Below the pieces are notes generated by a model. The model did not search any database. It was not told the origin of the DNA and saw only the letters and a list, made by a program, of their open reading frames with translations. This document shows, one piece after another, positions 22,364-52,120 of a stretch of 64,000 nucleotides of DNA. This DNA comes from Escherichia coli (GTDB taxonomy: Bacteria; Pseudomonadota; Gammaproteobacteria; Enterobacterales; Enterobacteriaceae). Location of the stretch: assembly GCF_024298765.1 (NCBI RefSeq), contig NZ_CP101210.1. One strand, 5' to 3'. A program made the translations under genes and the position numbers. Positions within the stretch are counted from its first letter, which is position 1. Each line of letters begins with the position of its first letter.

Positions 22364-23383
22364 ATGAAAAGCATTTTAATTGAAAAACCGAATCAACTGG
22401 CAATTATCGAACGCGAAATACCCACCCCGTCAGCGGGTGAAGTACGAGTAAAAGTGAAACTTGCCGGAATTTGTGGTTCAGATAGCCATATTTATCGTGG
22501 GCATAATCCTTTTGCGAAATATCCGCGCGTCATTGGTCATGAATTCTTTGGCGTCATTGATGCAGTGGGTGAAGGCGTGGAAAGCGCCAGAGTCGGTGAA
22601 CGCGTTGCTGTCGATCCGGTGGTCAGCTGTGGGCATTGCTATCCGTGCTCTATAGGTAAGCCGAACGTTTGTACGACACTGGCTGTATTAGGTGTGCACG
22701 CTGACGGTGGTTTCAGTGAATATGCCGTGGTTCCGGCAAAAAATGCGTGGAAAATTCCTGAAGCAGTGGCCGATCAATATGCGGTGATGATCGAACCTTT
22801 TACCATTGCGGCTAACGTTACCGGTCATGGTCAACCGACTGAAAATGATACCGTTCTGGTTTACGGTGCCGGTCCAATCGGCCTGACGATCGTTCAGGTA
22901 TTAAAAGGCGTCTATAACGTTAAAAATGTGATTGTTGCCGATCGCATTGATGAACGACTGGAAAAAGCGAAAGAGAGCGGGGCAGACTGGGCGATTAATA
23001 ACAGCCAGACACCGCTTGGCGAGAGTTTCGCTGAAAAAGGCATCAAGCCGACATTAATTATCGATGCGGCTTGTCATCCTTCTATCCTGAAAGAGGCTGT
23101 AACGCTGGCTTCTCCAGCGGCACGTATTGTATTGATGGGCTTCTCCAGTGAACCGTCTGAAGTGATTCAGCAAGGAATTACCGGAAAAGAACTCTCTATT
23201 TTCTCTTCACGCTTAAATGCAAATAAATTTCCGGTCGTTATCGACTGGTTAAGTAAAGGGTTAATTAAACCAGAAAAATTAATTACCCATACGTTTGATT
23301 TCCAGCATGTTGCTGATGCCATTAGTTTATTTGAACAGGATCAAAAACATTGCTGCAAAGTCTTACTCACTTTTTCTGAATAA
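22364..23383 (+). CDS. rspB: Zn-dependent alcohol dehydrogenase-family oxidoreductase (339 aa)
   Basis: GHEFFG zinc-binding motif and GAGPIG Rossmann motif; AAGGAG RBS. Confidence 0.9.
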   Translation: MKSILIEKPNQLAIIEREIPTPSAGEVRVKVKLAGICGSDSHIYRGHNPFAKYPRVIGHEFFGVIDAVGEGVESARVGERVAVDPVVSCGHCYPCSIGKPNVCTTLAVLGVHADGGFSEYAVVPAKNAWKIPEAVADQYAVMIEPFTIAANVTGHGQPTENDTVLVYGAGPIGLTIVQVLKGVYNVKNVIVADRIDERLEKAKESGADWAINNSQTPLGESFAEKGIKPTLIIDAACHPSILKEAVTLASPAARIVLMGFSSEPSEVIQQGITGKELSIFSSRLNANKFPVVIDWLSKGLIKPEKLITHTFDFQHVADAISLFEQDQKHCCKVLLTFSE

Positions 23384-23440
23384 TACCAATAACGGCGAGT
23401 AAGTAGTACGCATCTTACCTCTTTTTTAGAGATAACCATT

Positions 23441-23533
23441 ATGACAATAGAAAAACACGAAAGAAGCACTAAGGATTTGGTGAAAGCAGCAGTATCGGGA
23501 TGGCTGGGCACTGCGCTTGAATTTATGGATTTC
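23441..23533 (+). pseudogene. ydfJ: 5' fragment of an MFS transporter gene interrupted by prophage insertion
   Basis: Encodes MTIEKHERSTKDLVKAAVSGWLGTALEFMDF, recalled as the YdfJ N-terminus, then diverges into phage DNA and terminates within a few codons. Confidence 0.6.
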
Positions 23534-23570
23534 AAGAGTCATACGTGTCAACTATTTGATAAATATTAAA

Positions 23571-24866
23571 TTAATTTTTCATTGCTTCGTTATGGGGCAT
23601 GGTTGGGGCAAACTCGCTTAACTGTGTATTTAACAAAGCTACCTGTGCATTATTGTTTTCAGACATCCATTTTCCGTATACCTGAAATACCATTTGCGCA
23701 TCTGCATGGCCCATCTGGTTTGCTATAAATGCCGGGTTAGCACCAGCTGTCAGCGACCAGCAGGCATAAGTATGTCTCGACTGATATGATTTTCGATGGC
23801 GGAGTCCGGCACGTTTTATCGCTGCGTCCCACATCTGCCTTATTGAGTCAACGGTAAAATGGTCACCATAATTTTTTACTCTCGCTGACACTTCAGGTTG
23901 AAAAACAAAGGTGCATTTTTGTTTTTCTGTTCTGCCATACTCTCTGAGGTGAACATCAATGATATGCTCTTTGCTCAGTCTCGTTAATGTCATCTGACTC
24001 CGGAGAGCGTCGATTGCTGGCTTAATAAGATGAATGACCCGATTGGTTCCCGCCTGTGTTTTTGGTACCGTGAAACGGTCTTTTGCTAAATTTCTCCTGA
24101 TCATCATTGTTCCATTTTTCAGATCTATGTCCTCCCATCCAAGTGCACACAGCTCACCAGGGCGAACGCCAGTATAAACAGAAACACACCATAAATTTTT
24201 TGCTTGCTGATTTCTGCACGCATCGATAAGACGGATAAATTCCTCCCGCGAAAGAGGATCCGGAATGGTTCTTGATTCCTTTAATGGCGAGATCCCCTTA
24301 AACGGATTATCTGGCAGGTAACCGTTATCAACACCAAACTGGAACACGGCGTTAAGATTTGTCATGTAATTATTTACAGTTACAGCCGATCTCCCTGGTT
24401 GTGTAACAATATAGTTACTTTTGGGGATCTGGTATCCAGTCAGTAGCTCTTTACGAACCTCCAGTAATTTTTCTTTATTAATCGATGAGGCAAGATTTTT
24501 TTCACCGATTATGCTCAGGATATTTTTGATGACGGCACGGTATGTGTTGAGTGATGTTTTGGCGACTTCAGTTTCTTTCAGTGCCAGAAATTTTTCAGCC
24601 AGTTCTTTTATGGTTAAATCTTGTCGGGCCTCACCAAATTTTTCCAGATTGCGTGAGGAGGGAAACTGTTTTGCATAGTCGAAAACACCAGTTTTTATTG
24701 CGTAACAAACAGAGGAGCGTAGTTCACCTGCAACGCGCCTGTTTTTTGCTGTGTCAGGAACCCCCAGATTTTCCCTGACTCTTACGCCTTTATAAACAAA
24801 CCAGATACGTAATTTCCCTCCATGGTTTTCCACGCCTGTCGGATATTTCATTTCAACTTCTCTCAT
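23571..24866 (-). CDS. intQ: Phage tyrosine integrase (431 aa; possible alternative start at 24851)
   Basis: C-terminal catalytic region with RHTYACW...GH and tyrosine-recombinase R/H/Y spacing; gene ends at the host junction. Confidence 0.9.
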   Translation of the reverse strand: MREVEMKYPTGVENHGGKLRIWFVYKGVRVRENLGVPDTAKNRRVAGELRSSVCYAIKTGVFDYAKQFPSSRNLEKFGEARQDLTIKELAEKFLALKETEVAKTSLNTYRAVIKNILSIIGEKNLASSINKEKLLEVRKELLTGYQIPKSNYIVTQPGRSAVTVNNYMTNLNAVFQFGVDNGYLPDNPFKGISPLKESRTIPDPLSREEFIRLIDACRNQQAKNLWCVSVYTGVRPGELCALGWEDIDLKNGTMMIRRNLAKDRFTVPKTQAGTNRVIHLIKPAIDALRSQMTLTRLSKEHIIDVHLREYGRTEKQKCTFVFQPEVSARVKNYGDHFTVDSIRQMWDAAIKRAGLRHRKSYQSRHTYACWSLTAGANPAFIANQMGHADAQMVFQVYGKWMSENNNAQVALLNTQLSEFAPTMPHNEAMKN

Positions 24867-24885
24867 TAGTTAGTGTGGCTTTTAG

Positions 24886-25137
24886 TCAAGTAAGATGACG
24901 TCTTGGTCTCGCTGATGCCTGGCGCTCAATCCAGCGATCAATTTCTTCCAGGTTGTAAAAGCATGGACTGTTATCCCATGGCATACTGTCATGAGCGACA
25001 TGCTTATATTCCCTTCCTTCCATAAACGATTTTTCCCGGGCCTTTTTTAACGTACCTTTTTTTATTCCTTTCAGCGCAATTAACTGCTCTTCGGATACCC
25101 ATTTGCCGGGAGAGACAATCATGATTACTTCGCTCAT
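24886..25137 (-). CDS. Putative excisionase / small DNA-binding protein
   Basis: Small basic ORF immediately upstream of and co-directional with int; assigned from position and size only. Confidence 0.55.
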   Translation of the reverse strand: MSEVIMIVSPGKWVSEEQLIALKGIKKGTLKKAREKSFMEGREYKHVAHDSMPWDNSPCFYNLEEIDRWIERQASARPRRHLT

Positions 25138-25209
25138 CGATTTCTTTATCTCTTACATCAGACGAGCGCCGGTTGCAGAATACCAGTCACAACCGGCGAC
25201 AGTTGAACA

Positions 25210-27681
25210 TTAAGAATCAGCCTGACTCGGGATCAGTTTTTGCCAGATAACTGAAACGTATTTTGCCTGGTAACGGGCGTCATCAAGTGCATTATGGCGC
25301 TCACCTTCGAATGGAATAGCCGTTCTGGCATCGAAGTCTATGGCTTTCCCCAGCTCAACGATTGTGCGTACATCGCGATCGTTGTAGTAACGCCACGGGC
25401 AGGGGATCCCCTGCCGTTCGTATGAACGGCGCAAAATCGTGTTGTCGAAGTTGGCTCCATTTCCCCAAACCTGAACAAAAAATTCACTGGAGTTTTCGTC
25501 GATAAATTCCCGCAATTGTAACAGTGCATCATCTAACGGGATTTCATCGGTCATAATGGCAGATTGCGCTTCGCGTGATTGCTTAAGCCACCATTTAATG
25601 GTGTCCCGATCAATGACTCCGCCAGCAGTTTCCAGATCGATAGTCTTACTAAATTCCGGTCCCATATCTCCGGTTTGCGGATCGAAAAATATTGCACCTA
25701 TTGAGATGATCGGGGCATCAGGATTTTTTCCCATGGTTTCAAGGTCGATCATTAGATGGTCACACGTCCTGCTGGTGGATGTGATTTCGTGATGACCGTT
25801 CACCTTAATTGAGTGATCTGCCGTCTCGCCAGTTTCATTATCGCTATTGTGATGCTGATTGCCGCCAGTGTTCTCCTTGTGTGGATGTTCAGCGCCTTCC
25901 ATTTCCTCCGGATCATCTTCCTGAACTTCAACCTGATACTCTTCATCGAATGTTTCTTGGTATGTTGCGTCGCCCATCACCGCGCCACAATCAGGGCAGT
26001 TGCCGCCGCCGGTCTGACCGCAGGCGGTGCAGACTTTTTCCACTTCCTGTTGCGCCACTGGTTCAGGCTGTTTCGTTTCTGGCTCGTTTTGTAACGCATT
26101 TGTGCTGTTTTGTTCCGCTTTTTGGTAGTTCCGTTCCGATTCATGCTGGTTCTGGTTCACAGAATCGCGGGTCTGGATCCCCTTAACCCATTTCGGATCA
26201 TTCGGGTCACTAATCCCTTCAACAAATTCACCACGTGATGCAGCAAGCAACTTATCGGCGTCAGGCTGGCTGATATTGGCTGCCTGCATAATTTTGTTTA
26301 CTTCGTCAGCGGTAACTTTTATCGGCTCTGGTTGTTCTGAATCTTCAGCGGTATCTACATTTTGCGGTAAGCCCGTGTATGTGCCATTTTTTCGGGCAAA
26401 ATATTCTTCTTTTGTGATTTCAGTGGCGCCAGCAGCCAGTGCCTTATCCAGACCAGAAAGTTTGTTTGCGCGACCGTATTTTTCTCCGTCCTTATCTGCG
26501 AAGAGGAAATAGAACGGCCCCTCACGCTCTACAGATGGTTCAGCTTCCGGCGCGGTTTCATTTTTTGGGATATCAGATACCTCAGTTTCCACTGCATCAG
26601 TTTGTGTTTCTGATGACTGGAGAACATCAACAGTGCCCAGGTCTGTTTCTTCATTCTCAAACACGCCCTTTGTCGTCAGGTATTCGCAGATATATTTGTT
26701 CAGTGCTATGGGATCTTTGTGAATGTCGATCGGACGCTCACGGACAAGGCCAAAAATAGTCTGGCGGTCGTAGCGAAGGGCATCAGGCTGTTTGCGCATT
26801 GATGCCGAGATACGCTTCCAGTCTTCGCGGTCGTTGTCGATAACTTCTTTTTTTGCCCAGCGATGGATGCTGCCGTCAATGTTTCCGGCATCCACATCAC
26901 CAGGCCAGAGAGCGTAGGCCAGTTCGTCATCCAGTGTTTTCCATGTCTGCTTGTATTCGCGATGAATGGCAGCAATGACCGGGCTGATTTTTCCTGTTGA
27001 ATTTTCAGTGTACTGTTGATTGGCTCTGGCGCGGGCGAGATCAACAACAGACGTGTATTTTCCGGTTTCCTTGCGTTCACCTTCGCGACGTTTTTTCCAG
27101 ATGCGCATCTCTGCCTGAATTTCGGGCCATTTAGCACCAGGAATACATTTATGCTTAACCCACCCAATGGCGTGCAACTTAAGCTCCGGATACATGGCGT
27201 TAACTTCTGGCATTTTCATCAACGCTTCAACGATATGTCCGTCGAATGTTGCCATGTCTTCCTGCAACAATTCCTGTGCGCTAATAACCATATCAACGGT
27301 GATGTTTTCACATGTGTCGAACTTAACCATGACAGCGTTCTGTACTTCAGGGGCCAGCTTGTCAAAAGTGACGTTCATCGGATCGGATTCAGTCTCAACC
27401 GGGACAAAAGAAGCAGACTCCTCATCCCAGCGGTTTTCCTGCATATATTCAGCATCCCATGAATCGAGGGCAGGGCGGGGTATGCCAGGTTTATCCTCGC
27501 AGACAATAAATTTATAAGCGCAGTCCTGAGCAGCCGGATAATGTTCCAGGAACTGCCAGTGAAATTTTGCTCGAGCACGGCGTTCGTCGCCAGCTTCAAT
27601 GGCTGTGGCTACAGCCACAGCGCCTTCTTCCCTTGTTGCCAGTTCGTCAGGAATAGCGGCGCAAATAAAGACTTTACTCAT
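25210..27681 (-). CDS. Large prophage exonuclease-like protein (823 aa) with central zinc ribbon and C-terminal DnaQ-like 3'-5' exonuclease domain
   Basis: C-terminal motifs DLETMG, WGNGANFDNTIL and HNALDDARY fit the DEDDh exonuclease pattern; CTACGQTGGGNCPDCG zinc ribbon mid-protein; occupies the position of the decayed ydfE in K-12 Qin. Confidence 0.7.
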   Translation of the reverse strand: MSKVFICAAIPDELATREEGAVAVATAIEAGDERRARAKFHWQFLEHYPAAQDCAYKFIVCEDKPGIPRPALDSWDAEYMQENRWDEESASFVPVETESDPMNVTFDKLAPEVQNAVMVKFDTCENITVDMVISAQELLQEDMATFDGHIVEALMKMPEVNAMYPELKLHAIGWVKHKCIPGAKWPEIQAEMRIWKKRREGERKETGKYTSVVDLARARANQQYTENSTGKISPVIAAIHREYKQTWKTLDDELAYALWPGDVDAGNIDGSIHRWAKKEVIDNDREDWKRISASMRKQPDALRYDRQTIFGLVRERPIDIHKDPIALNKYICEYLTTKGVFENEETDLGTVDVLQSSETQTDAVETEVSDIPKNETAPEAEPSVEREGPFYFLFADKDGEKYGRANKLSGLDKALAAGATEITKEEYFARKNGTYTGLPQNVDTAEDSEQPEPIKVTADEVNKIMQAANISQPDADKLLAASRGEFVEGISDPNDPKWVKGIQTRDSVNQNQHESERNYQKAEQNSTNALQNEPETKQPEPVAQQEVEKVCTACGQTGGGNCPDCGAVMGDATYQETFDEEYQVEVQEDDPEEMEGAEHPHKENTGGNQHHNSDNETGETADHSIKVNGHHEITSTSRTCDHLMIDLETMGKNPDAPIISIGAIFFDPQTGDMGPEFSKTIDLETAGGVIDRDTIKWWLKQSREAQSAIMTDEIPLDDALLQLREFIDENSSEFFVQVWGNGANFDNTILRRSYERQGIPCPWRYYNDRDVRTIVELGKAIDFDARTAIPFEGERHNALDDARYQAKYVSVIWQKLIPSQADS

Positions 27682-27774: not shown

Positions 27775-27966
27775 TTAAAGACCTGCCGGGATTTCGATAT
27801 TATCCTGGTGAATAACTTTATCGACCGGGTAACAGTTACCGGGAATTTTCTGTTCGGTTGCTGCTGTCATACACTCCTGCATTGTCCTGTGAACACTGAC
27901 TGCAATATCAACTGGCTCTCCGGAAACAAGAAAAACTGTCAGAACAAGCGCAAATGCTGAATTCAT
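27775..27966 (-). CDS. ydfD: Small membrane/secreted protein (63 aa)
   Basis: MNSAFALVLTVFLVSGEPVD hydrophobic N-terminus; directly downstream of dicB as in Qin. Confidence 0.7.
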   Translation of the reverse strand: MNSAFALVLTVFLVSGEPVDIAVSVHRTMQECMTAATEQKIPGNCYPVDKVIHQDNIEIPAGL

Positions 27967-28151
27967 TGTGCACATCCTTTTGGCATCAGACGTAAACGAG
28001 CCAGCATTGAAACAATGCATATTTTATTTAATAGCTCCCGTTCTTGTTTTCTCTTGTTAATGGCATCTTCAGTAAATACAGGGTTACTGATAGTGACACC
28101 AATTTCAAAACAACCTTCAGACGTATTAACGTTTGGTAATAACGTTTTCAT
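27963..28151 (-). CDS. dicB: Cell-division inhibitor DicB (62 aa)
   Basis: MKTLLPNVNTSEGCFEIGVTISNPVFTEDAINKRKQERELLNKICIVSMLARLRLMPKGCAQ matches recalled DicB; lies downstream of dicF. Confidence 0.85.
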   Translation of the reverse strand: MKTLLPNVNTSEGCFEIGVTISNPVFTEDAINKRKQERELLNKICIVSMLARLRLMPKGCAQ

Positions 28152-28320
28152 TATCGCGTCCTCAACAATGAATTTTGTGATGCAGTGCCTGGTGCCTCCA
28201 GGTGACGTTAACCAGTTAACAATTAACGCCGGATACAGAGAATCCACCCATAACACTGTTTTTGGTTTTAACTGTTCCGCGTGCGCTTAGCCGCATTCAC
28301 CGCATCACAAAATTCACTTT

Positions 28321-28378
28321 AAAAACGGCGGCAGAGCAGTCACGGAGTAAAACTGATACCGCCAAACGTCACCAGAAA
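28321..28378 (-). ncRNA. dicF: DicF small RNA
   Basis: Reverse complement of 28327-28378 reads TTTCTGGTGACGTTTGGCGGTATCAGTTTTACTCCGTGACTGCTCTGCCGCC, the recalled DicF sequence, ending in a GGCGG/CCGCC hairpin and U-tract. Confidence 0.85.
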
Positions 28379-29352: not shown

Positions 29353-29466
29353 GCTGACCTCATTTCCCCTTAACGCCGGGGTCGCGGAACTGTTTGCTGA
29401 GAACACCGTGCGGTGTCTTGATGGAAAGTAATTTAGAATAACCTAACATGAGAGGCAAGTGTTTTT

Positions 29467-29484
29467 TGTTAGATTGATCTAACA
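29467..29484. promoter_or_regulatory. Operator-like palindrome TGTTAGA-n4-TCTAACA downstream of dicA
   Basis: Perfect inverted repeat TGTTAGATTGATCTAACA; same half-sites as the palindrome in the dicA-dicC intergenic region. Confidence 0.45.
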
Positions 29485-29520
29485 AAAAGAGTGGGCGCAA
29501 CTAATCACTTGAAAAGAATG

Positions 29521-29928
29521 TTATTTTATTGATTTATTTTTACGCGCTTTAAGCATTTCTTCGAAGAGTTTGTTGAAGTTTTCTACTCTTGCGCGCATTT
29601 CAGACAGCAAGGCTTCCTGCTCGGAAGATGGAAGAGCATCGAATAATTCGATCAATTCTTTGTGGTTGGGAGTTAGCTCTGTTTCCACATGAAGTTCTTG
29701 TGCAGGCACTGGTGCCTTGTCTTCGTCACCAAACATTAGCCATGTAGGTGAGCACTTCAGAGCATCCGCTAAAGCAAACAATCGTTTTCCGACTGGCTGG
29801 GTTTCGTCTCTTTCCCATTGTGAAATTGTGACGTGAGCAACTCCAGCGAGGCGCGCAGCTTCTCGTTGTGTTAAGCGTAATTCTTTTCGTCGCGCCAGAA
29901 CTCGCTGGCCTAGGGTTCTTGTATCCAT
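29521..29928 (-). CDS. dicA: Prophage repressor DicA (HTH_XRE, 135 aa)
   Basis: HTH RLAGVAHVTISQWER and C-terminal ...EMRARVENFNKLFEEMLKARK match recalled DicA; divergent from dicC. Confidence 0.9.
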   Translation of the reverse strand: MDTRTLGQRVLARRKELRLTQREAARLAGVAHVTISQWERDETQPVGKRLFALADALKCSPTWLMFGDEDKAPVPAQELHVETELTPNHKELIELFDALPSSEQEALLSEMRARVENFNKLFEEMLKARKNKSIK

Positions 29929-29950
29929 AGTTAGGTAATTCTAATTTTTC

Positions 29951-29995
29951 TTGACTTAGGTATCCCGCGCACAATAATGTTAGAAAAGTCTAACA
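29951..29995 (+). promoter_or_regulatory. Putative dicC promoter with overlapping operator palindrome
   Basis: TTGACT, a 17-bp spacer, then ATAATG; the perfect palindrome TGTTAGAAAAGTCTAACA at 29978-29995 overlaps the -10 element. Confidence 0.5.
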
Positions 29996-30005
29996 AGAGG
30001 GGGCT

Positions 30006-30236
30006 TTGATGCTTAAAGTTGACGCAATTACTTTTTTTGGCAGCAAAACAAAGCTTGCCAATGCCGCAGGAGTGAGACTGGCAAGTGTTGCTGCTTGGGG
30101 GATACTGGTTCCTGAAGGTCGCGCGATGCGTCTACAGGAGGCATCTGGCGGGGAGCTTCAGTATGATCCCAAAGTTTATGACGAATATCGTAAGACGAAG
30201 CGGGCGGGGCGGTTGAACAATGAAAATCACTCCTGA
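30006..30236 (+). CDS. dicC: Cro-like regulator DicC (76 aa)
   Basis: ...GRAMRLQEASGGELQYDPKVYDEYRKTKRA matches recalled DicC; divergent from dicA. Confidence 0.85.
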   Translation: MMLKVDAITFFGSKTKLANAAGVRLASVAAWGILVPEGRAMRLQEASGGELQYDPKVYDEYRKTKRAGRLNNENHS

Positions 30237-30741
30237 ACAGGCTCGTGAGGCTCTGGATGCCTGGATATGTCGACCAGGAATGACACAGGAGCAGGCGACG
30301 ATATTAATCACTGAAGCATTCTGGGCTTTGAAAGAGCGCCCGAACATCGATGTTCAGCGTGTCACATATGAAGGTGGCGCGGTTGATCAGCGAGCGCTTA
30401 GCGTTAATCGAGTGAAGATATTCGAACGCTGGAAGGCTATCGACACCAGGGATAAGCGTGAAAAGTTCACAGCGCTAGTGCCTGCAATTATGGAGGCTAT
30501 CCGGATTAGTGATTTCAGGTTGTATCGTGAGATCAGTGATGGAAAAAGTATTACGTACATGATCGCCGGGTTAAATAAAGAATATGGCGATGTGGTGGAA
30601 TCCGGACTGCTTTTTGCAGATCCTGCCGTTGTAGATCGTGAAACTGACGAACTTATAGAAAAAGCAATTGCTTTCAAGCTTGCGTATCGACAGCAATACC
30701 AACAAAAAGCTGGATGGAATTATGAGTCTTCTTTTTGCTGA
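30220..30741 (+). CDS. Hypothetical early-region protein (173 aa)
   Basis: ORF overlapping the dicC 3' end and coupled to the replication gene; no family recognised. Confidence 0.5.
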   Translation: MKITPEQAREALDAWICRPGMTQEQATILITEAFWALKERPNIDVQRVTYEGGAVDQRALSVNRVKIFERWKAIDTRDKREKFTALVPAIMEAIRISDFRLYREISDGKSITYMIAGLNKEYGDVVESGLLFADPAVVDRETDELIEKAIAFKLAYRQQYQQKAGWNYESSFC

Positions 30742-31687
30742 ACGCCCACTGGTTATAAACACGCAGCTGGCAATGAAAATCGGCTTAAACGAAGCCATTG
30801 TTTTGCAACAACTGCACTACTGGTTGAGAGATACCAACTCCGGTATGGAATGTGATGGTGTTCGCTGGATTTATAACACAACGGAACAATGGCTGGAACA
30901 GTTCCCATTCTGGTCAGAGTCAACGTTAAAGCGCGCGTTTGCAAGTCTGAAAACGCTGGGGCTTTTGCGTTGTGAAAAGCTCAATAAATCAAAGCGCGAT
31001 ATGACCAATTTCTACACGATCAACTATGGGAGCGAGCTTTTAGATGGTGGCAAATTGAACGAATCCATCGGTTCAAAATGCGCCGCTCCATCAGGTCAAA
31101 ATGACACGATGGAAGAGGTCAAAATGAAACGCTCCATTGGTTCAAAACGACCCAATGTCATCGGGTCAAAATGGCCTGATGATCTTACAGAGAATACAAC
31201 AGAGATTACTACAGAGAATAAAAACACTTTTCGTCCGGAAGCTTCGCAACCGGACCCGCAGACGACTGAACAGGATTTTTTAACCCGGAACCCCGACGCG
31301 GTTGTGTTTAGTGTGAAAAAACGCCAGTGGGGTAGCAGGGAGGATCTGGCGTGTGCGCAGTGGATTTGGGGGCGGATCGTGAACCTTTACGAACAGGCTG
31401 CCAGCGACGATGGAGAGATCATGCGACCAAAAGAGCCTAACTGGACAGCCTGGGCCAATGACGTGCGCACAATGCGGATGCTGGATGGCAGAAGCCACAG
31501 ACAAATTTGCGAAATGTTTGGTCGGGTACAGCGGGATCCATTCTGGGTAAAAAACATCATGAGCCCGTCAAAACTCCGCGAAAAATGGGACGAACTGGTC
31601 ATCCGCCTGGGACGTTCACCTGTACAGCGTTGTGTGAATCATATTTCTGAACCGGATACAGAAATTCCGCCTGGTTTCAGGGGATAA
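30722..31687 (+). CDS. Putative phage replication initiation protein (321 aa)
   Basis: ATG at 30722 overlaps the upstream stop; N-terminal region (LKRAFASLKTLGLLRCEK) resembles phage replication-initiator winged-helix domains; assigned mainly by position. Confidence 0.55.
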   Translation: MSLLFAERPLVINTQLAMKIGLNEAIVLQQLHYWLRDTNSGMECDGVRWIYNTTEQWLEQFPFWSESTLKRAFASLKTLGLLRCEKLNKSKRDMTNFYTINYGSELLDGGKLNESIGSKCAAPSGQNDTMEEVKMKRSIGSKRPNVIGSKWPDDLTENTTEITTENKNTFRPEASQPDPQTTEQDFLTRNPDAVVFSVKKRQWGSREDLACAQWIWGRIVNLYEQAASDDGEIMRPKEPNWTAWANDVRTMRMLDGRSHRQICEMFGRVQRDPFWVKNIMSPSKLREKWDELVIRLGRSPVQRCVNHISEPDTEIPPGFRG

Positions 31688-31727
31688 GTGTTGATTTCAG
31701 GTCATGAGATAATTTTAAGGGGGACTT

Positions 31728-32129
31728 GTGGCAAAAGTTTTTACACAAGAAGAGCGGGAAAAAATTAAAGGGCAGGTTGTTGAACTCGTACGCCGGAGTG
31801 GGCGTGAGACGTTACGGCAACTGGAAGTCAAGACAGGTGCGACAAGATATCTGATGAGCGTTCTCGCAAGAGAGCTGGTTGCCAGCGGCGATGTATACAA
31901 CTCTGGTTACGGGTTATTCCCGTCTGAACAGGCGCGTAAGGACTGGCAAAATGCCCGTAAAAAGCTCTCAAGGGCAAAGCTGAAGAAACCATCTGCGGTT
32001 GATCCGGACCTTATCTGGTCATTACCTGACGGAGAAATACGTCGCTACGACAGGCGTCAGAACATAATCTGCCGCGAGTGCCGGAAGAGTGAAGTTATGC
32101 AGCGCATACTGGCATTTTATCAGGGATAA
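31728..32129 (+). CDS. Hypothetical basic protein (133 aa), GTG start
   Basis: GTG preceded by AAGGGGGA RBS; C-terminal CxxC; no family recognised. Confidence 0.45.
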   Translation: MAKVFTQEEREKIKGQVVELVRRSGRETLRQLEVKTGATRYLMSVLARELVASGDVYNSGYGLFPSEQARKDWQNARKKLSRAKLKKPSAVDPDLIWSLPDGEIRRYDRRQNIICRECRKSEVMQRILAFYQG

Positions 32130-32662: not shown

Positions 32663-33688
32663 ATGCACATTTTATCTGTTTCAAAAAAGGAAGTTGGAAG
32701 AGCTGGGGATAGATTAGTTTCTCAGTTTGGTACAGGTGAAAAATATAAAGAGGAAGATGTACAAATTCTTCATGAGTGGAGGATGTTGCATTTATATCCT
32801 TTAAGTAAAATACAATTTTATATGGAAAGAGAGGCTATTTCCTTAAACAAAAATGCGTTACTATCCTCTAGAATTAAGAGGATGCCTTCCATTGTTACTA
32901 AGCTTTCTAGATTTCCTGATATGAAGTTAAATAAGATGCAGGATCTTGGTGGGTGCCGGGCTATTTTAAATAATCTGGATCAAGTGTATGATTTAGTTAA
33001 TAAAATAAAATCATCTAAATTCTCACATGAACTAGTTAGAATGGATGATTACATGATAGACGTGAAAGATTCTGGTTATAGAAGCTTTCATATGGTCTAT
33101 TCATTCCAAAATAAAAAATTTCCATCTTTAAATGGGTTGCGCATTGAAATGCAAATAAGAACAGCTATTCAACATAGCTGGGCTACAGCAGTTGAAATGG
33201 TTGGTTTGTTTCGAAAGGAATCATTGAAATCTGGTTTTGGTGATGCAAGATGGCTTAGGTTTTTTGAATTGGTATCAGAGCTTTTTTATAAACTTGAGTA
33301 TGAAAAAGAACCATCTGGGAGTTATATAAAAATATCAGAAGAATTAAGTTATTTATCCGTCGAGTTGAATGTTTTCGATATATTAGCTGCTTACAATGCC
33401 GTAGTTAGCCATATTGAGGGTAGCAAAAAATATGATAAAGGACTTTGCATAATTGTTGTTGATACCATAAAGCGGAATATAAATATAAAGAGCTTCGAAA
33501 ATCACAATCATGCGAAGGCGGCAGAAGCTTATGTCGAGTCTGAAAAATACTGCGCGGAAAATAAAGGCTGTGAAGTGGCTATGGTTTCTGTTAGTTCAAT
33601 TAGTGAATTAAAAAATGCATATCCTGCTTACTTTTTAGATACGAAAACTTTTTTAAATTATCTCAGTAGGTATGTTTTTATAAAATAA
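32663..33688 (+). CDS. RelA/SpoT-homologue synthetase-domain protein (341 aa); candidate fused toxSAS toxin-antitoxin
   Basis: All four synthetase motifs present: RIKRMPSIVTK (RxKxxxSxxxK), DLGGCR (DxxGxR), GYRSFH, EMQIRTAIQHSWA (ExQIRT...W). About 130-aa C-terminal extension, no adjacent partner ORF, and much lower GC than the flanks. Confidence 0.75.
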   Translation: MHILSVSKKEVGRAGDRLVSQFGTGEKYKEEDVQILHEWRMLHLYPLSKIQFYMEREAISLNKNALLSSRIKRMPSIVTKLSRFPDMKLNKMQDLGGCRAILNNLDQVYDLVNKIKSSKFSHELVRMDDYMIDVKDSGYRSFHMVYSFQNKKFPSLNGLRIEMQIRTAIQHSWATAVEMVGLFRKESLKSGFGDARWLRFFELVSELFYKLEYEKEPSGSYIKISEELSYLSVELNVFDILAAYNAVVSHIEGSKKYDKGLCIIVVDTIKRNINIKSFENHNHAKAAEAYVESEKYCAENKGCEVAMVSVSSISELKNAYPAYFLDTKTFLNYLSRYVFIK

Positions 33689-34211: not shown

Positions 34212-34422
34212 TTTCATATTGGCGAGGTAAAGGTAGTTAAGTAGAATGGCTGCGGGTGCTTGAGGCTATCTGCCTCGGGCATGAACACCAAAGGCAGATA
34301 GAGAAAAGCCCCAGTTAACATTACGCGTCCTGCAAGACGCTTAACATTAATCTGAGGCCAATTTCATGCTAGACACATGTAGGTTAGCCTCTTACGTGCC
34401 GGAAGGCAAGGAGAAGCAGGCT

Positions 34423-34578
34423 ATGAAGCAGCAAAAGGCGATGTTAATCGCCCTGATCGTCATCTGTTTAACCGTCATAGTGACGGCACTGGTAACGAGG
34501 AAAGACCTCTGCGAGGTACGAATCCGAACCGGCCAGACGGAGGTCGCTGTCTTCACAGCTTACGAACCTGAGGAGTAA
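34423..34578 (+). CDS. hokD: Hok-family type I toxin (51 aa) with overlapping mok-like frame starting at 34366
   Basis: MKQQKAMLIALIVICLTVIVTALVTRKDLCEVRIRTGQTEVAVFTAYEPEE matches recalled HokD; AAGGAGAAG RBS; upstream in-frame extension resembles mok. Confidence 0.85.
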   Translation: MKQQKAMLIALIVICLTVIVTALVTRKDLCEVRIRTGQTEVAVFTAYEPEE

Positions 34579-36455: not shown

Positions 36456-37208
36456 ATGAACCTTGAAGCCTTACCAAAATATTACTCCCCAAAATCTCCA
36501 AAATTGAGCGATGACGCTCCAGCGACAGGCACCGGTTGTTTAACAATTACGGATGTAATGGCAGCGCAGGGGATGGTGCAGTCGAAAGCACCACTTGGGT
36601 TGGCCTTATTTCTGGCAAAAGTTGGTGTTCAGGACCCTCAGTTTGCGATTGAAGGCCTGCTAAATTACGCGATGGCACTGGATAACCCGACATTGAACAA
36701 ATTGAGTGAAGAAATCCGGTTACAGATTATTCCTTACCTCGTGAATTTTGCCTTTGCTGATTACTCCAGGTCTGCGGCAAGTAAGGCTCGCTGTGAGCAT
36801 TGTTCAGGTACGGGATTTTATAATGTATTGCGCGAAGTGGTGAAACACTACAGACGCGGGGAATCTGTAATCAAGGAAGAATGGGTGAAGGAACTATGTC
36901 AGCATTGCCATGGTAAGGGCGAAGTCAGCACAGCGTGCAGAGGGTGTAAGGGTAAAGGGATTGTTCTGGATGAAAAAAGAACCCGGTTTCATGGCGTACC
37001 GGTATATAAGATTTGTGGGCGTTGTAATGGAAACCGATTTAGTCGTTTACCGACCACGCTGGCACGACGTCATGTCCAGAAGCTGGTACCAGACCTGACC
37101 GATTATCAGTGGTATAAGGGGTATGCGGACGTCATTGATAAACTGGTAACAAAGTGCTGGCAGGAAGAAGCATACGCGGAAGCGCAATTGAGGAAGGTGA
37201 CGAGATAA
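36456..37208 (+). CDS. quuQ: Late-gene antiterminator Q-like protein (250 aa)
   Basis: Cys-rich zinc-binding region (CEHCSGTGF...[21 protein letters not shown]...CGRCNG); followed by a terminator as in a pR'-tR' unit. Confidence 0.85.
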
Positions 37209-37382: not shown

Positions 37383-37573
37383 ATAAACATTGGCAGTTGA
37401 AGGTCCACGCGAACCATTTATCCGGCAAAATTCCACGCGTAATCCTGTGGTAATTTCTTCTGCATCTCGAAGATTGAGAGCTGAAACGTGAAGCTGGGCA
37501 TCGATACGCCATCGGATGGGAATATAAGACCTTTGCTGCTTTTGTAGTCAAAGTTTTTGACAATTCCTGTCAT
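37383..37573 (-). pseudogene. cspF: Cold-shock protein CspF-like gene with internal frameshift
   Basis: From the ATG at 37573 the frame reads [22 protein letters not shown]; the rest of the CspF-like sequence ([10 protein letters not shown]...[20 protein letters not shown]) continues in another frame and has no in-frame stop at the expected position. Confidence 0.55.
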
Positions 37574-37883
37574 TTTAGGGGACAGAAAAACTCCTTAATA
37601 CTGATAACCTGGTGCACCATACACACGTTCCTGGAGAAAACTACTTTTTTGATAGGGTTGAAGGTGGCTGGATGTCTAAAATAAACATTGCTTCATATGT
37701 TCAACTATGAGTTAATGACTGCGTCGGTTTGAAGAACAGACGATATACGAAGTAGTTTACTAAAGCAGTTCTCATTTCAGGTGTTATTCACTTATTCCTT
37801 CTTTGAGTCTCTCCAATTAAGTACGAAGTCGTTTCTGTTATGCAAACCATTTATGCCGAAAGGCTCAAGTTAAGGAATGTAGA

Positions 37884-38099
37884 ATGTCAAATAAAATGAC
37901 TGGTTTAGTAAAATGGTTTAACGCTGATAAAGGTTTCGGCTTTATTTCTCCTGTTGATGGTAGTAAAGATGTGTTTGTGCATTTTTCTGCGATTCAGAAT
38001 GATAATTATCGAACCTTATTTGAAGGTCAAAAGGTTACCTTCTCTATAGAGAGTGGTGCTAAAGGTCCTGCAGCAGTAAATGTCATCATTACTGATTAA
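37884..38099 (+). CDS. cspB: Cold-shock protein CspB (71 aa)
   Basis: [71 protein letters not shown]; long AT-rich 5' leader typical of csp genes. Confidence 0.95.
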
Positions 38100-38382
38100 A
38101 ATTCATCGCTCGTCTGTATACGATAACGAAGAAGGCTGATGCCTGAGTAGAGATACGGACAGAGTAGTGAATATTGGATCTCTTTAATAAAAAGTAAGGA
38201 GGTCCAATACATGAAACAATGGCCAGCATATTTGGCAAAATCTTAATCAGGAAAAGTATGCTAACCATTGTGGTGAAGTGCAGGTTTGCTGCATGAATAG
38301 TTTTACAGCAGAAGCTAACTGCTGGCATGGCAAAACAAAGTGCGTAAGTGGATGACTCCCACAAAAAGCACCACAATCTCAA

Positions 38383-38852: not shown

Positions 38853-39068
38853 ATGAAATCAATGGATAAGTTAACAACAGGTGTTGCCTATGGCACATCG
38901 GCGGGTAATGCTGGTTTCTGGGCATTGCAGTTACTCGATAAAGTAACTCCGTCACAGTGGGCTGCAATCGGTGTGCTGGGTAGCCTGGTTTTTGGCCTGC
39001 TGACGTATCTGACAAATCTTTATTTCAAGATTAAAGAAGACAGGCGTAAGGCTGCGAGAGGAGAGTAA
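38853..39068 (+). CDS. essQ: Class II pinholin (phage 21 S-like), dual start giving 71 and 68 aa
   Basis: [71 protein letters not shown]; two in-frame Met three codons apart, as in the S21 antiholin/holin pair. Confidence 0.85.
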
Positions 39069-39072
39069 TCCA

Positions 39073-39380
39073 ATGACTCAAGACTATGAACTGGTTGTGA
39101 AAGGAGTCCGTAATTTTGAGAATAAAGTTACGGTAACTGTAGCCTTACAGGACAAAGAACGCTTTGACGGTGAAATTTTTGACCTGGATGTCGCCATGGA
39201 CCGTGTTGAAGGAGCTGCGCTGGAGTTTTATGAGGCAGCAGCCAGAAGGAGCGTCCGGCAAGTCTTCCTGGAAGTAGCAGAAAAATTGTCAGAAAAAGTT
39301 GAGTCTTATCTGCAGCATCAGTACTCCTTTAAGATTGAAAATCCTGCCAATAAGCACGAGCGTCCTCATCATAAATATCT

Positions 39381-39384
<4 letters not shown>
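39073..39384 (+). CDS. ydfR: Prophage protein YdfR (103 aa)
   Basis: 103-aa ORF between holin and endolysin, overlapping the endolysin start. Confidence 0.78.
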
Positions 39385-40408
<1,024 letters not shown>

Positions 40409-40771
40409 GGTAATATTAAATCGGAACATTTACATCGCGGAATGTAAAATTTAAATAAAAAGGACTCTTCCATGAGCCAAAATTCCTGAAATCTTAAGGG
40501 TAAGATAAAAGGTCTTAATCAGAATGACACGTTTTATTAATAAATAAAGCTATTCTTTCATTGCTGTGTTTTTCTTTACAAAAGTAATCCTTGCTATGGG
40601 TGGTTAATCATGCGTTAATGGTGTTCTGGTTTGTTACAAATTTATCTGAAGCAGTCATTTTTATAATTTTATTATTTGTACCTCTTGAGATTTCCTTGTT
40701 GGTTTTTCTCTCTGATATTTTTTTTTCGGACCATTCTGCCCAAGGGCTAATTTCTTCAAAAGGTAATAATT

Positions 40772-40984
40772 ATGTCTAACAAAATGACTGGTTTAGTGAA
40801 ATGGTTTAACCCTGAAAAAGGTTTTGGTTTCATCACGCCGAAAGATGGCAGCAAAGATGTGTTTGTCCATTTCTCAGCAATTCAGAGCAACGATTTCAAA
40901 ACATTAACTGAGAATCAGGAAGTTGAATTTGGTATTGAGAACGGACCTAAAGGTCCTGCCGCTGTTCATGTAGTGGCGCTTTGA
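40772..40984 (+). CDS. cspI: Cold-shock protein CspI (70 aa)
   Basis: [70 protein letters not shown]. Confidence 0.95.
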
Positions 40985-41190
40985 GGTAGACAATATTACA
41001 AACCATATTCACTTTAGATGCCCGTGTTGTCATGGTTCCCAGTATAGAACATCATCTTTTGATGTTTCTGACATGAATCCTTTCGGGGCAAAATGTATCT
41101 TTTGTAAATCAATGATGATTACATTTGATAATATTTCACAATACTTAAATGCCAGCCGTCTGTCGTTGGATTTAAAAAAGTGAAAATGAA

Positions 41191-41211
41191 GGCTCCTTCG
41201 GGAGCTTTTTT
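41191..41211 (+). terminator. Rho-independent terminator
   Basis: GGCTCC-ttcg-GGAGC hairpin followed by TTTTTT. Confidence 0.55.
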
Positions 41212-41255
41212 GCTTGGTGTCTATTCGATGGATACTCACATACTACGGTAACATC

Positions 41256-41486
41256 ATGAAAAAAATCATAGTTTTTTTTAACTCTGAACCAGCAGTGGTA
41301 GTGTCAGCGATGACTGGAGTTAACACCATCATGCGTGAATATCCAAATGGCGAAAAAACACACCTTACTGTAATGGCCGCAGGGTTTCCATCTCTGACCG
41401 GAGATCATAAAGTCATTTATGTAGCCGCGGATCGACATGTTACTTCAGAAGAAATTCTGGAAGCAGCAATAAGGCTCTTGAGTTGA
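41256..41486 (+). CDS. Hypothetical 76-aa protein
   Basis: ORF MKKIIVFFNSEPAVVVSAMTG...; weak RBS; no family recognised. Confidence 0.3.
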   Translation: MKKIIVFFNSEPAVVVSAMTGVNTIMREYPNGEKTHLTVMAAGFPSLTGDHKVIYVAADRHVTSEEILEAAIRLLS

Positions 41487-41657
41487 TTTGATGCTATTGC
41501 ATTGATAATTCAGGAAAATTCTCTTTGTCTGTTTGTGTAAAATTTAGACTATCGTATGTTGATTATTGCGATGTTTCATCTTATCTTTTACACGTTTGCA
41601 CCATATAATCGACTTACTGTGTAACTGGAAAGTCATAACAGACTAAAAGAGGAAATG

Positions 41658-41831
41658 ATGAATATTGAAGACTTAAAAACAAAAGCAGAAGCAGATATTT
41701 CTGAATATATAACAAAAAAAATTATTGAACTTAAGAAAAAGACCGGGAAAGAAGTTACCAGTATTCAGTTTACCGCACGGGAAAAAATGACGGGTCTTGA
41801 AAGCTATGATGTCAAGATTAATTTAATCTGA
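41658..41831 (+). CDS. gnsB: GnsA/GnsB-family protein (57 aa)
   Basis: MNIEDLKTKAEADISEYITKKIIELKKKTGKEVTSIQFTAREKMTGLESYDVKINLI; AAGAGGA RBS; below the 60-aa cutoff of the ORF track. Confidence 0.75.
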   Translation: MNIEDLKTKAEADISEYITKKIIELKKKTGKEVTSIQFTAREKMTGLESYDVKINLI

Positions 41832-41982
41832 TGTATTCAATAATAAAGTTTATCCATAAACCTCGTTTTTACGGGGTTTTGTTATATTTGAATGGTTCCG
41901 AATATCTAAATCACAATTGTTGATGGTTTTTATTAAACCAATGCAGTCCGGCTCAGGAGTGAGAGAAGCCGGACGTTATGGT

Positions 41983-42393
41983 TTAGCGTGGTAAGATCTG
42001 TGTAGTTTTCTGGATGCTTTCAGTAAATAGTAATGAGTTATCAAAGGCATAGTAATATCTTTGGTGTTCCTGGATATTTGTAACCCATCGGAAAACTCCT
42101 GCTTTAGCAAGATTTTCCCTGTATTGTTGAAATGTGATTTCTTTTGATTTCAACTTATTATAGGAGGTCTCTATAAGATGTTTGTTTCTGGAGAATTTAA
42201 CATTTACAACCTTTTTGAGTCCTTTTACTAACACTATGTTGTCGTTTTCTAACACAATGTGAATATTATCTGTGGCTAAATAGTAAATATAAAGTGAGAC
42301 ATTGTGACGTTTTAGCTCAGAATAAAATAATTCACAGTTTAAATCTTTACGCACTTGATCGAATATTTCTTTAAAAATGGCAGCCTGAGCCAT
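41983..42393 (-). CDS. ydfO: DUF1398/YdfO-like protein (136 aa from internal Met)
   Basis: GGAAGG RBS before the ATG at 42393; AT-rich gene; family assignment from memory, moderate. Confidence 0.55.
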
Positions 42394-42593
42394 TGGTAAA
42401 CCTTCCATGTGATACGATGGCGCGTAGTTTGCGTAACAAAGTTGAGCCTTGCTGGCATCCAGGAGGGATATGCAACCGACAGATGTATGTAAGGTCGATG
42501 TACTCAAACTTTCATACTTTTCCTCTTTTATGCAGAAAGATTTGAAGTAATATTTTAACCGCTAGATGACGAGCAAACGCATGGAGCGACAAA

Positions 42594-42800
42594 ATGAATA
42601 AAGAACAATCTGCTGATGAACTCTCGTTGGATCTGATTCGTGTAAAAAATATGCTTAATAGCACCATTTCTATGAGTTACCCGGATGTTGTAATCGCATG
42701 TATAGAACATCAGGTGTCTCTGGAAGCATTCAGGGCAATTGAGGCAGCGTTGGTGAAGCACGATAAGAATTCGAAGGATTATTCCCTGGTGGTTGACTGA
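42594..42800 (+). CDS. Hypothetical 68-aa protein
   Basis: GGAG RBS eight nt before the ATG; divergent from the ydfO-like gene. Confidence 0.4.
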
Positions 42801-43159
42801 GCACCATAACTGCTAATCATTCAAACTATTTAACCTGTGACAGAGTCAATGTCGCATTCTGTCACTGTCAGGCTAATACAGAGCTGCAATTCAACTACTG
42901 CAATGTCCTCGTAATTAGGTGAATTTACATATCGTCCTGTTCGGATGCCGGCTGCATTGCTGAAGATGAGGCATTTATGGTTCGCATATTTTCCCCTCAT
43001 GCTCGTCAGTCCTGTGCGTAGGAAGAAACAGGACACTCACACTAATTTGTGTGGGCATGCTGTGATGTCCTTCTGAATTATTCCTATGCCATTATGTAAA
43101 GCGCTGTATCAGATGCTCGTCACGGCTGTCAGGCTGTCGGGTCCTCCCGGTGGGGGCCC

Positions 43160-43200
43160 CTGCCACGGGGCGGGAGCGTCGCGGAAAAAGGCTAGTTTTT
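43160..43200. other. Putative cos site (cosN-cosB-like) upstream of terminase
   Basis: ACGGGGCGGGAGCGTCGCGG followed by an A/T-rich tract resembles the lambda cos junction (ACGGGGCGGCGACCTCGCGG), about 170 bp before the small terminase. Confidence 0.5.
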
Positions 43201-43353
43201 GAAATTTCATTCGTCATCACCACTACTGTAATAGATTGATATTACAGTGTTTTTATTTTTGTGGTGTCGATTTTGATTGTTTTTTGTTCATCACTAACAC
43301 CGTTTGCCTAAAGTTGTTCGCAAGATGCATGTTTAAAACATTCTGGAGCGGGT

Positions 43354-43848
43354 ATGGATCGAGAGTTAAAAAATCTGACGCTGAATATCAGTCAACTGGC
43401 GGCACTGTCAGGTGTACATCGCCAGACTGCTGCGGCAAGGCTGCAAAATCTACCCGTTGCAGGGGGGCATGAAAGCAACCTCAAGCTTTATCGGGTGGTT
43501 GATATTGTGTCGGCATTTCTGGCATTACCACCGCCGGTTGCAGAAAGCGAAATGGATGCGCATGAGCGCAAAGCCTGGTATCAGTCTGAACGTGAGCGTC
43601 TTAAGTTCGAACAGGAAACGGCACAACTCATTCCGGCCAGTGATGTCAGACGGGAGTTTGCCATCTGGGCAAAAGCGGTCGTGCAGGTGCTGGAGACATT
43701 ACCGGATATTCTTGAACGTGACTGCGGTCTGCAGCCTGCCGCTGTGAGCCGTGTTCAGTCCATTATTGATGATCTGCGCGATCAGATAGCCCTGCGGGTG
43801 ACTGAAGCAGGTGCGGATGATGAGGAGGAATTACAGCAGGAGGAGTAA
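43354..43848 (+). CDS. Terminase small subunit (Nu1-like, 164 aa)
   Basis: N-terminal HTH (LTLNISQLAALSGVHRQTAAARLQ), acidic C-terminus, overlaps the large-terminase start. Confidence 0.8.
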   Translation: MDRELKNLTLNISQLAALSGVHRQTAAARLQNLPVAGGHESNLKLYRVVDIVSAFLALPPPVAESEMDAHERKAWYQSERERLKFEQETAQLIPASDVRREFAIWAKAVVQVLETLPDILERDCGLQPAAVSRVQSIIDDLRDQIALRVTEAGADDEEELQQEE

Positions 43849-45950: not shown

Positions 45951-46159
45951 ATCAGAATGATATTGAAGCCATGATTCAGCGTTATACGGAAGCTGAAATG
46001 GCGGTGCTGGACGGAAAATCCGTCACTTTTAATGGTCAGCAGATGACCATGGAAAACTTATCTGAGATCCGGCAGGGGCGGCAGGAGTGGGAGCGCCGCC
46101 TTGCGGCTCTGATTACACGACGACGGGGGCATCCCGGGTACCGGCTGGCGAGGTTCTGA
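45941..46159 (+). CDS. Head-tail joining protein (gpW-like, 72 aa)
   Basis: Small ORF between terminase and portal, overlapping both. Confidence 0.6.
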   Translation: MVMNQNDIEAMIQRYTEAEMAVLDGKSVTFNGQQMTMENLSEIRQGRQEWERRLAALITRRRGHPGYRLARF

Positions 46160-47667: not shown

Positions 47668-47680
47668 TTCCTGGTTCAGG

Positions 47681-49639: not shown

Positions 49640-49725
49640 ACGTCGCAGACAACAACTCTGATGGCCCGTAAGGGCTTTTTTTGTACCTGAAATCAGCCTC
49701 TGAACGGGGCTGTGCGGAGACAGTT

Positions 49726-50049
49726 ATGGCAAAGAATTTTGTAGAAGAAGGAAAAACGGTGGCGATTGTTGCCAGTGCAGCCATCAGCAGCGGAGATCTG
49801 GTGCAGGTGGGTGATGTTTTTGCGGTGGCGCTGACCGATATTCCACAGGGTGAAACAGGCGACGGCATGACCGAAGGTGTGTTTATCCTGCCTAAACTGA
49901 AAACGGATGACATGAAAACGGGTAAGAAGGTTTATCTGAAGTCCGGAAAAGTTCAGCTGACTAACAGCGGCTCTGATCCGCTGGTCGGGGTTGTCTGGGC
50001 AGATGCCGGAACCAGTGCAGAAGAAGTGCCGGTAAAACTCAATGTCTGA
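49726..50049 (+). CDS. Small head protein (decoration or head-completion candidate, 107 aa)
   Basis: GGAG RBS; position after the capsid gene. Confidence 0.5.
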   Translation: MAKNFVEEGKTVAIVASAAISSGDLVQVGDVFAVALTDIPQGETGDGMTEGVFILPKLKTDDMKTGKKVYLKSGKVQLTNSGSDPLVGVVWADAGTSAEEVPVKLNV

Positions 50050-50317: not shown

Positions 50318-50328
50318 AGAGGTGTGGG

Positions 50329-51305: not shown

Positions 51306-51316
51306 AGGAGGTGGCA

Positions 51317-52060: not shown

Positions 52061-52080
52061 CAGGACGATACTCATCATTT

Positions 52081-52105
52081 GCCCCGGTTATCCGGGGCTT
52101 TTTTG
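52081..52105 (+). terminator. Hairpin with U-tract after the major tail gene
   Basis: GCCCCGG-ttat-CCGGGGC followed by TTTTTT. Confidence 0.45.
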
Positions 52106-52120
52106 CAGGTGGAGAACATG

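Follow-up and report, generated by a model that had tools for sequence, protein, structure and literature searches.

In a 64,000-nt stretch of Escherichia coli DNA (NCBI RefSeq assembly GCF_024298765.1, contig NZ_CP101210.1; hereafter the window), the host gene rspB is followed by the beginning of ydfJ and then by the gene of a full-length tyrosine integrase, which raises the question of whether this junction borders a complete and still active prophage or a decayed one like the Qin element of strain K-12. We found that positions 23518–23536 very probably represent the left attachment site (attL) of a single complete lambda-like prophage of approximately 44.5 kb in ydfJ, which is of the Tritos/mEp460_ev081 type and most likely still active. 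At the sequence level, this prophage is the undecayed form of K-12 Qin.

The final host gene ahead of the junction is rspB (22364–23383, + strand), located as an open reading frame (ORF) and from the PGAP annotation of a near-identical genome (553–1572 there). An ORF of 42 codons (ydfJ′, 23441–23569, + strand; translation MTIEKHERSTKDLVKAAVSGWLGTALEFMDFKSHTCQLFDKY) begins 57 nt 3′ of the rspB stop codon at 23383. Its residues 1–31 are the N-terminus of intact YdfJ, as had been recognized in the original prediction, and the 11 codons that follow diverge from ydfJ and are prophage-derived. This ORF had been said to stop about 35 bp before the integrase stop codon; the distance holds for the ydfJ homology, which is lost after position 23533, 37 nt ahead of that codon, but not for the ORF itself, which continues to 23569 and ends 1 nt from the stop of the convergent integrase gene. 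We checked whether ydfJ runs on uninterrupted and found that it does not: its remainder beyond the far end of the prophage is called a pseudogene by PGAP ('missing N-terminus'). The junction rspB–ydfJ′–int (window positions 23000–24000) was covered to at least 80% in 2661 of 5426 complete E. coli genomes and is therefore neither a chance arrangement nor an artefact. The K-12 'protein YnfP' (b4534, 36 amino acids, translation MTIEKHERSTKDLVKAAVSGWLGTALEFMDFKSHAC; 24729–24839, − strand, in the K-12 segment used for comparison) is the same ydfJ remnant, consisting of the first 31 ydfJ codons fused to sequence from the arm of the phage attachment site (attP). The allele in the window encodes 42 amino acids because a TAA codon of K-12 is CAA here. 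A promoter and terminator scan (23200–25400) and a repeat search (23350–23750) gave nothing above shuffled expectation, and no terminator was detected between the convergent ends of ydfJ′ and int. Since a tRNA scan found no tRNA, the integrase is not of the tRNA-targeting kind.

The products of recombination were built by joining the host flanks (bacterial attachment site, attB) and the prophage ends (attP), and the four sites attL, attR, attB and attP were aligned. The attL site (TGAATTTATGGATTTCAAG) takes its left part from attB and its right part from attP, and the site as a whole is an imperfect 19-bp sequence with the consensus TGAATT(T)ATGGATTTC(A/C)AG. The identical core comprises 11 bp, TTATGGATTTC, at 23523–23533, and is the sole exact repeat of at least 11 bases common to both prophage ends. 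It lies approximately 7–12 bp further left than the position near 23530–23545 first proposed for it. In the alignment, attB reads ...gcgctTGAATTTATGGATTTCCAGttat and attP reads ...acctgTGAATT-ATGGATTTCAAGagtc; the 19-bp attB, TGAATTTATGGATTTCCAG, spans ydfJ codons 27–33, and the 18-bp attP, TGAATT-ATGGATTTCAAG, is located about 37 bp beyond the int stop codon. The difference between the two sites consists of a one-T indel in the left part and an A/C mismatch in the right part. As attL displays the attB form of the T-run together with the attP form of the A/C position, and attR the reverse, strand exchange would have taken place within the 11 identical bases 23523–23533, and given the mode of action of tyrosine recombinases the crossover must fall within TTATGGATTTC. 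The attL and attR of K-12 Qin are identical to those described here, cores and flanks included, and an att length of 18 or 19 bp has been reported for prophages at this site (PPydfJ; Nakamura et al. 2021, PMC8112680). A k-mer search of attP yielded one plausible motif, TGGGGCA, which occurs twice at 23593–23610 (+ strand; copies 4 bp apart, 60–77 bp from the core) in the P′ arm within the 3′ end of int, and a third time in the P arm outside the window (about position 46034 of the locus in a near-identical genome). These copies are speculative candidates for arm-type integrase-binding sites: window-wide the motif occurs seven times against ten expected, which is not above chance, and the available attP copies are 99% alike, so that conservation of the motif is uninformative.

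The far end of the prophage was located in two near-identical genomes, those of strain FDAARGOS_1287 (14 differing positions over window 22189–64000) and of the avian pathogenic E. coli (APEC) strain APEC E956 (12 differing positions over window 23001–64000). In both, the prophage extends about 4 kb past the window (stf, tfa, a Pin-type invertase gene, ydfK and ynfT) to window-equivalent position 67991, with attR and the ydfJ fragment lacking its N-terminus at 67977–67994. The other ydfJ fragment and the direct repeat anticipated at the far end were thus both found in these genomes, and the source genome is predicted to carry the TGAATTATGGATTTCCAG repeat and a ydfJ 3′ fragment approximately 44.5 kb downstream of attL. 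In the joined host flanks (601-bp reconstruction), a full-length YdfJ reads through the former junction. This attB sequence occurs at 100% identity in five genomes, where it is annotated as 'ydfJ: MHS family MFS transporter', providing the comparison with an uninterrupted ydfJ that had been proposed, and it is covered to at least 80% in 2011 of the 5426 genomes. The joined prophage ends (600 bp) are contiguous at 98.8–99.3% identity in the phages mEp460_ev081 (ev081 below), Tritos, HannyBb and PhiR42_1. Moreover, the avian isolate CT30, which has an uninterrupted ydfJ, showed only three substitutions in 23.2 kb relative to the reconstructed empty site (window 3001–23533 plus the right flank from a near-identical genome), with continuity across the junction. 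Because CT30 is near-isogenic and its site is empty, the occupied and empty states coexist on nearly one backbone, and CT30 and a prophage-bearing strain form a natural near-isogenic pair in which effects of the prophage could be studied. In CT30, an IS1 insertion also splits ynfG.

The integrase (Int) gene (23571–24851, − strand) encodes 426 amino acids from the PGAP start, or 431 from an alternative upstream ATG at 24866. The protein has an N-terminal arm-binding domain (PF12167 Arm-DNA-bind_2, E = 4e-23, residues 9–72), a SAM-like core-binding region and a C-terminal catalytic domain (Phage_integrase PF00589, E = 9e-18). Alignment to the motifs of the Tn1549 Int placed its catalytic residues (426-residue numbering) at R230, K264, R359, H382 and the nucleophile Y392. 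Compared with the integrases of Tritos, PhiR42_1 and ev081 it carries two substitutions in 426 residues, two and four, respectively, none of them catalytic, and it is 97.2% identical over residues 31–426 to the remnant of K-12 intQ. The excisionase gene xis (24886–25137, − strand; 83 amino acids; phrog_539 excisionase, E = 9e-35) differs from those of ev081 and Tritos by one substitution in 83 residues. The exonuclease gene (25210–27681, − strand; 823 amino acids) is full length and matches PhiR42_1 and Tritos with 99% identity and 100% cover. In K-12, ydfE is a truncated pseudogene of the exonuclease, and the cover is 31%. PADLOC returned no match for Int and the exonuclease. The retention of int, xis and a full-length exonuclease, and a junction in ydfJ next to an intact tyrosine integrase, were both claims of the original prediction; the former is borne out by ORFs of 426, 83 and 823 amino acids and the latter by the 426-residue ORF together with the attB and attP reconstructions. 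In the model that we propose, Int, with its arm-binding, core-binding and catalytic domains, would have recombined the phage attP with attB in ydfJ. With the prophage in place, ydfJ is severed from its promoter and its first 28–31 codons, leaving the 42-codon remnant ORF, and Int together with the adjacent Xis should be able to reverse the reaction and restore ydfJ exactly.

The att-to-att interval measures 44,469 bp, with a single int and each module present once; 38.5 of the 44.5 kb (87%) are collinear with the 45.9-kb genome of ev081 at 91–97% identity. In a gene-by-gene comparison with ev081, PhiR42_1, Tritos and K-12, all of the 50-odd phage-function genes were full length and had a counterpart with 87–100% identity in ev081, PhiR42_1 or Tritos. 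This applies to the non-repressor regulators, the O-like initiator, DUF977, Q, the holin–lysozyme–Rz genes, the terminases, the portal, the protease–capsid fusion, the connectors and the tail genes; the exceptions to this identity range are the immunity repressor (a different allele), one cargo gene and the mosaic middle of the side tail fibre. Inactivating lesions were found in none of the phage-function genes. None of the three conditions that could have refuted the original prediction (an uninterrupted ydfJ, a missing att repeat, inactivating lesions) thus applied, and its interpretation is supported in essence. Because the regulation, replication, lysis, packaging and virion genes are all intact, the element is most likely an active temperate phage. 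Of the relatives used here, PhiR42_1 and ev081 are taken as isolated phages on the basis of their database records and, for Ev081, a phage from the infant gut, of a published statement (PMC9928086).

With respect to induction, the immunity repressor is of particular relevance. It is a 135-amino-acid protein of the DicA family (29521–29928, − strand; NCBIfam NF007257 DicA, 224.7 bits against a cut-off of 101, full length) that lacks a Peptidase_S24 self-cleavage domain (Pfam detected HTH_3 only) and so does not qualify as a CI/LexA-type SOS repressor; the route through RecA-stimulated self-cleavage, on which classical mitomycin C induction relies, is therefore unavailable. No antirepressor was identified in the prophage. 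Induction by mitomycin C thus appears doubtful, and low-level spontaneous induction is more likely to be expected than a strong response to SOS or mitomycin C, so that a negative outcome of an SOS-based induction test could be misleading for this prophage. Tritos is spontaneously produced at 2.8e6 encapsidated genomes per mL, gave one plaque isolate on MG1655 hsdR− and forms siphovirus particles as seen by transmission electron microscopy; induction by ciprofloxacin was reported for two other LF82 prophages only, not for Tritos (PMC9928086). As its repressor is different, Tritos is only a guide to the behaviour of the prophage described here. The repressor is 52–57% identical to those of ev081, PhiR42_1 and K-12, and no complete genome of an isolated phage seems to represent its immunity type so far. 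The immunity region (29436–30105) is the main block of the early region without nucleotide similarity to ev081.

The alternative that has to be weighed most seriously is that the prophage, although its sequence is intact, is locked functionally (cryptic) by a defect in non-coding control or a missense change, so that no excision, replication or infectious particles would result and the element would persist as a domesticated carrier of morons (the cold-shock genes, hok/sok, dicB/DicF and a CapRel-like defence gene). We consider this possible, if rather unlikely. Besides a repressor without self-cleavage domain and the lack of an identified antirepressor, it is favoured by reports that elements at the Qin site are often 'grounded' (PMC6379469) and by the finding of nearly the same element in numerous APEC and human isolates, in keeping with stable vertical inheritance. 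Several further points count against an active phage. As the far end lies outside the window, attR could be read in near-identical genomes but not in the source genome itself; the repressor shares 30–57% identity with its counterparts in the isolated relatives, and just one record of the phage collection, an 8-kb fragment named 'phage Rac', matches it closely (94%); the moron cspF is a frameshifted pseudogene (approximately 37383–37585, − strand); and Int has Y356 in place of the usual first catalytic His. In addition, completeness refers to the coding genes, which were what the comparison covered. The Y356 substitution is also present in the Int of viable relatives and is probably harmless, and apart from cspF no pseudogene is annotated within the prophage in the near-identical genomes, in which ydfJ at attR is also marked. 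Against a locked element stand the 50-odd full-length phage-function genes, which are near-identical to those of isolated phages, the attL and attR sites, whose cores are perfect and whose arms are 99% identical to a functional attP, and the near-isogenic CT30 backbone with an empty, intact ydfJ, which points to recent gain or precise loss. On balance, we therefore favour the active prophage.

An idea that we regard as improbable is that integration and precise excision serve as a reversible switch for the ydfJ–ydfI transport/oxidoreductase unit ('active lysogeny'). Two hints point this way: Met29 of ydfJ is encoded, in frame, by the att core, and the remnant ORF (YnfP) still has the promoter and start of native ydfJ; the empty site of CT30 bears on the idea only in that both states exist in one lineage. 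Even less probable is a composite or tandem prophage cluster of the type known from the ydfJ locus of O157:H7 and O26. The left int and the structural genes or right end would then belong to different elements. Two to four prophages at ydfJ have been documented (PMC8112680) and sizes of up to 97 kb reported (PMC6379469), but the size of the att-to-att interval speaks against such a cluster, no second att core, int or duplicated head or tail module was seen between the att copies, the one int and one set per module rule out a tandem arrangement, and the composite reading was rejected for the end-to-end collinearity with the single ev081 genome. That the YdfJ-like ORF arose by chance or mis-assembly and marks no true junction, for which only its shortness speaks, is scarcely conceivable and is refuted by the prevalence of the junction, the natural occurrence of both the attB and attP reconstructions and the identical attL and attR of K-12.

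Upstream of the exonuclease lie ydfD, dicB and the small RNA DicF (27775–28377, − strand), as annotated in a near-identical genome (ydfD 27775–27966, dicB 27963–28151); DicF (28326–28377, − strand) is full length (Rfam 72.5 bits against a gathering score of 48). With DicF upstream of dicB and ydfD, these genes form the Qin cell-division-inhibition cassette within the early-left operon leading to xis and int. To the right of the repressor, PHROGs identified a Cro/DicC-like regulator, the CII-like YdaT, the O-like replication initiator and DUF977 (30009–32129, + strand); compared with ev081 and PhiR42_1 all are full length, the Cro/DicC-like regulator being 76–86% and the other three 93–99% identical. 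The late antiterminator Q (ydfT, 36456–37208, + strand) is 98–99% identical to those of PhiR42_1, Tritos and K-12, and the lysis cassette (holin essD, ydfR, lysozyme rrrQ and rzpQ; 38853–40408, + strand) is 99–100% identical to those of PhiR42_1 and Tritos.

Between the replication genes and hokD, a variable moron slot holds a gene for a 341-amino-acid RelA/SpoT-domain protein (32663–33688, + strand), which aligns over its full length with the solved fused toxin–antitoxin CapRel(SJ46) (PDB 7ZTB/9ERV, E = 2.6e-34) and matches the PADLOC candidate defence family PDC-S33 (E = 5e-119). In ev081, PhiR42_1, Tritos and K-12 Qin the gene is missing and the slot is occupied by other cargo; it is probably a prophage-borne abortive-infection defence gene. 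The toxin gene hokD (34254–34578, + strand) is accompanied by a full-length match to the sok antisense RNA (Rfam model 1–157 of 157, 117 bits). In K-12 Qin, relBE, ydfV and flxA are located upstream of hokD, none of which is annotated here, and the insertion of relBE is reported in the literature to have shortened hokD in K-12 Qin. Two thermoregulator 5′ leaders of the cspA type precede the cold-shock genes cspB and cspI (37723–38146 and 40625–41011, + strand).

The terminase genes and a complete head–tail module, which the original prediction had listed, form one collinear block (43354–62356, + strand; 97.3% identical to ev081) coding for TerS, TerL, portal, protease–capsid fusion, head–tail connectors, a complete set of lambda-like tail proteins (Z, U, V, G, T, H, M, L, K, I and J) and Lom, each of which is full length and 93–100% identical to ev081 and/or Tritos. 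The cos site had likewise been listed as retained. A probable cosN, GGGCGGGAGCGT, at 43168–43179 (+ strand) is placed by the ends of the Tritos record, which abut exactly here, and is not a measured end. In phage lambda, cosN is GGGCGGCGACCT, and given its resemblance to this sequence GGGCGGGAGCGT is likely to be cos. A position of cos at 43329, the start of the ev081 record, was rejected: this start lies 25 nt ahead of the terminase gene, and in the window the two ends of the record adjoin without a gap, indicating an arbitrary linearisation. The side tail fibre gene (62421–64000, + strand) runs off the window. The stf and tfa genes (window-equivalent 62421–66644; 40610–44833 in the near-identical-genome locus) are followed by a convergent gene for a Pin-type serine invertase (85% identical to K-12 PinQ), which suggests an invertible tail-fibre segment beyond the window. 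Inversion driven by PinQ in Qin has been reported to block T2 adsorption (2025 paper, PMC12529663).

The 4.2-kb module comprising ydfJ′, int, xis and the exonuclease was covered to at least 80% in 2282 of the 5426 complete genomes; a K-12 derivative covers 49% of it. The intact module is the norm at the ydfJ site and the K-12 form the exception, and its retention therefore does not set this copy apart. Qin has been described as integrating into the 5′ end of ydfJ, with 28 codons being lost (Ramisetty and Sudhakari 2019, PMC6379469), and Qin-site prophages of 11 to 97 kb were present in 48% of 638 strains (PMC6379469). The site, the 18/19-bp att, the occupancy in about half of the strains and the viability of phages with this integrase are thus already known (PMC8112680, PMC6379469, PMC9928086). 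For annotation, the present analysis fixes the exact attL and the crossover interval, designates ynfP as a ydfJ remnant and marks the prophage as probably live and not a relic like Qin.

When compared with K-12 Qin, for which intQ′, ydfE′, dicA/dicC/dicB/DicF, relBE, hokD, cspB/F/I, essQ–rrrQ–rzpQ and pinQ served as the reference content, the prophage shares the ydfJ site, the remnant ORF, the att sites and the integrase, and dicB, ydfD, hokD, rem, ydfU, ydfT, cspB, cspI, the lysis genes, gnsB, ydfK and ynfT are 96–100% identical. In contrast, K-12 has neither xis nor the replication genes, 69% of the exonuclease is missing there, as is the entire packaging, head and tail module, IS2 cuts intQ and ydfE, the intQ remnant lacks its first 30 codons and has a gap, and relBE and flxA have been inserted; the original prediction was right that the K-12 integrase gene and ydfE are decayed, both being pseudogenes with the IS2 remnant between them. 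Conversely, the DicA allele of the prophage is only 57% identical to that of K-12, and the moron slot holds the CapRel-like gene. In Tritos (LF82 prophage 3, OV696610.1) and ev081 (LR597641.1), attP is 99% identical. The 18 genes from the gpW-like gene to gpJ are 93–100% identical to those of ev081, as are TerS and TerL at 99%; the same genes from gpW-like to gpJ are 95–100% identical to those of Tritos, except for the tail terminator gpZ (79.6%). Both phages differ in the repressor (30–52% identical) and in the moron cargo between the replication genes and hokD, ev081 also in the Q/rusA region, and Tritos also in TerS (42%), TerL (87.5%) and its tail-fibre set. The PPydfJ prophages of Shiga toxin-producing E. 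coli (STEC; O26:H11 strain 11368, O157:H7 and O177:H25; PMC8112680) occupy the same chromosomal locus with an att of 18/19 bp, and excision of PPydfJ-R of O26:H11 strain 11368 has been documented by an attP polymerase chain reaction product (PMC8112680). They differ by type III effector loci (nleC, nleG), by often forming clusters and by often having integrases inactivated by insertion sequences. Neither effector genes nor secondary attB sites inside the prophage were noticed in the window, although no search aimed at them was made. With phage lambda, finally, the prophage has in common a heterobivalent tyrosine integrase with an N-terminal arm-binding domain, xis directly upstream of int, an attP adjoining int and a short core of identity with attB; it differs in the att sequence and target, which lies inside a coding gene here and is intergenic in lambda, and in its repressor, which is of the short DicA type, whereas lambda CI bears an S24 domain.

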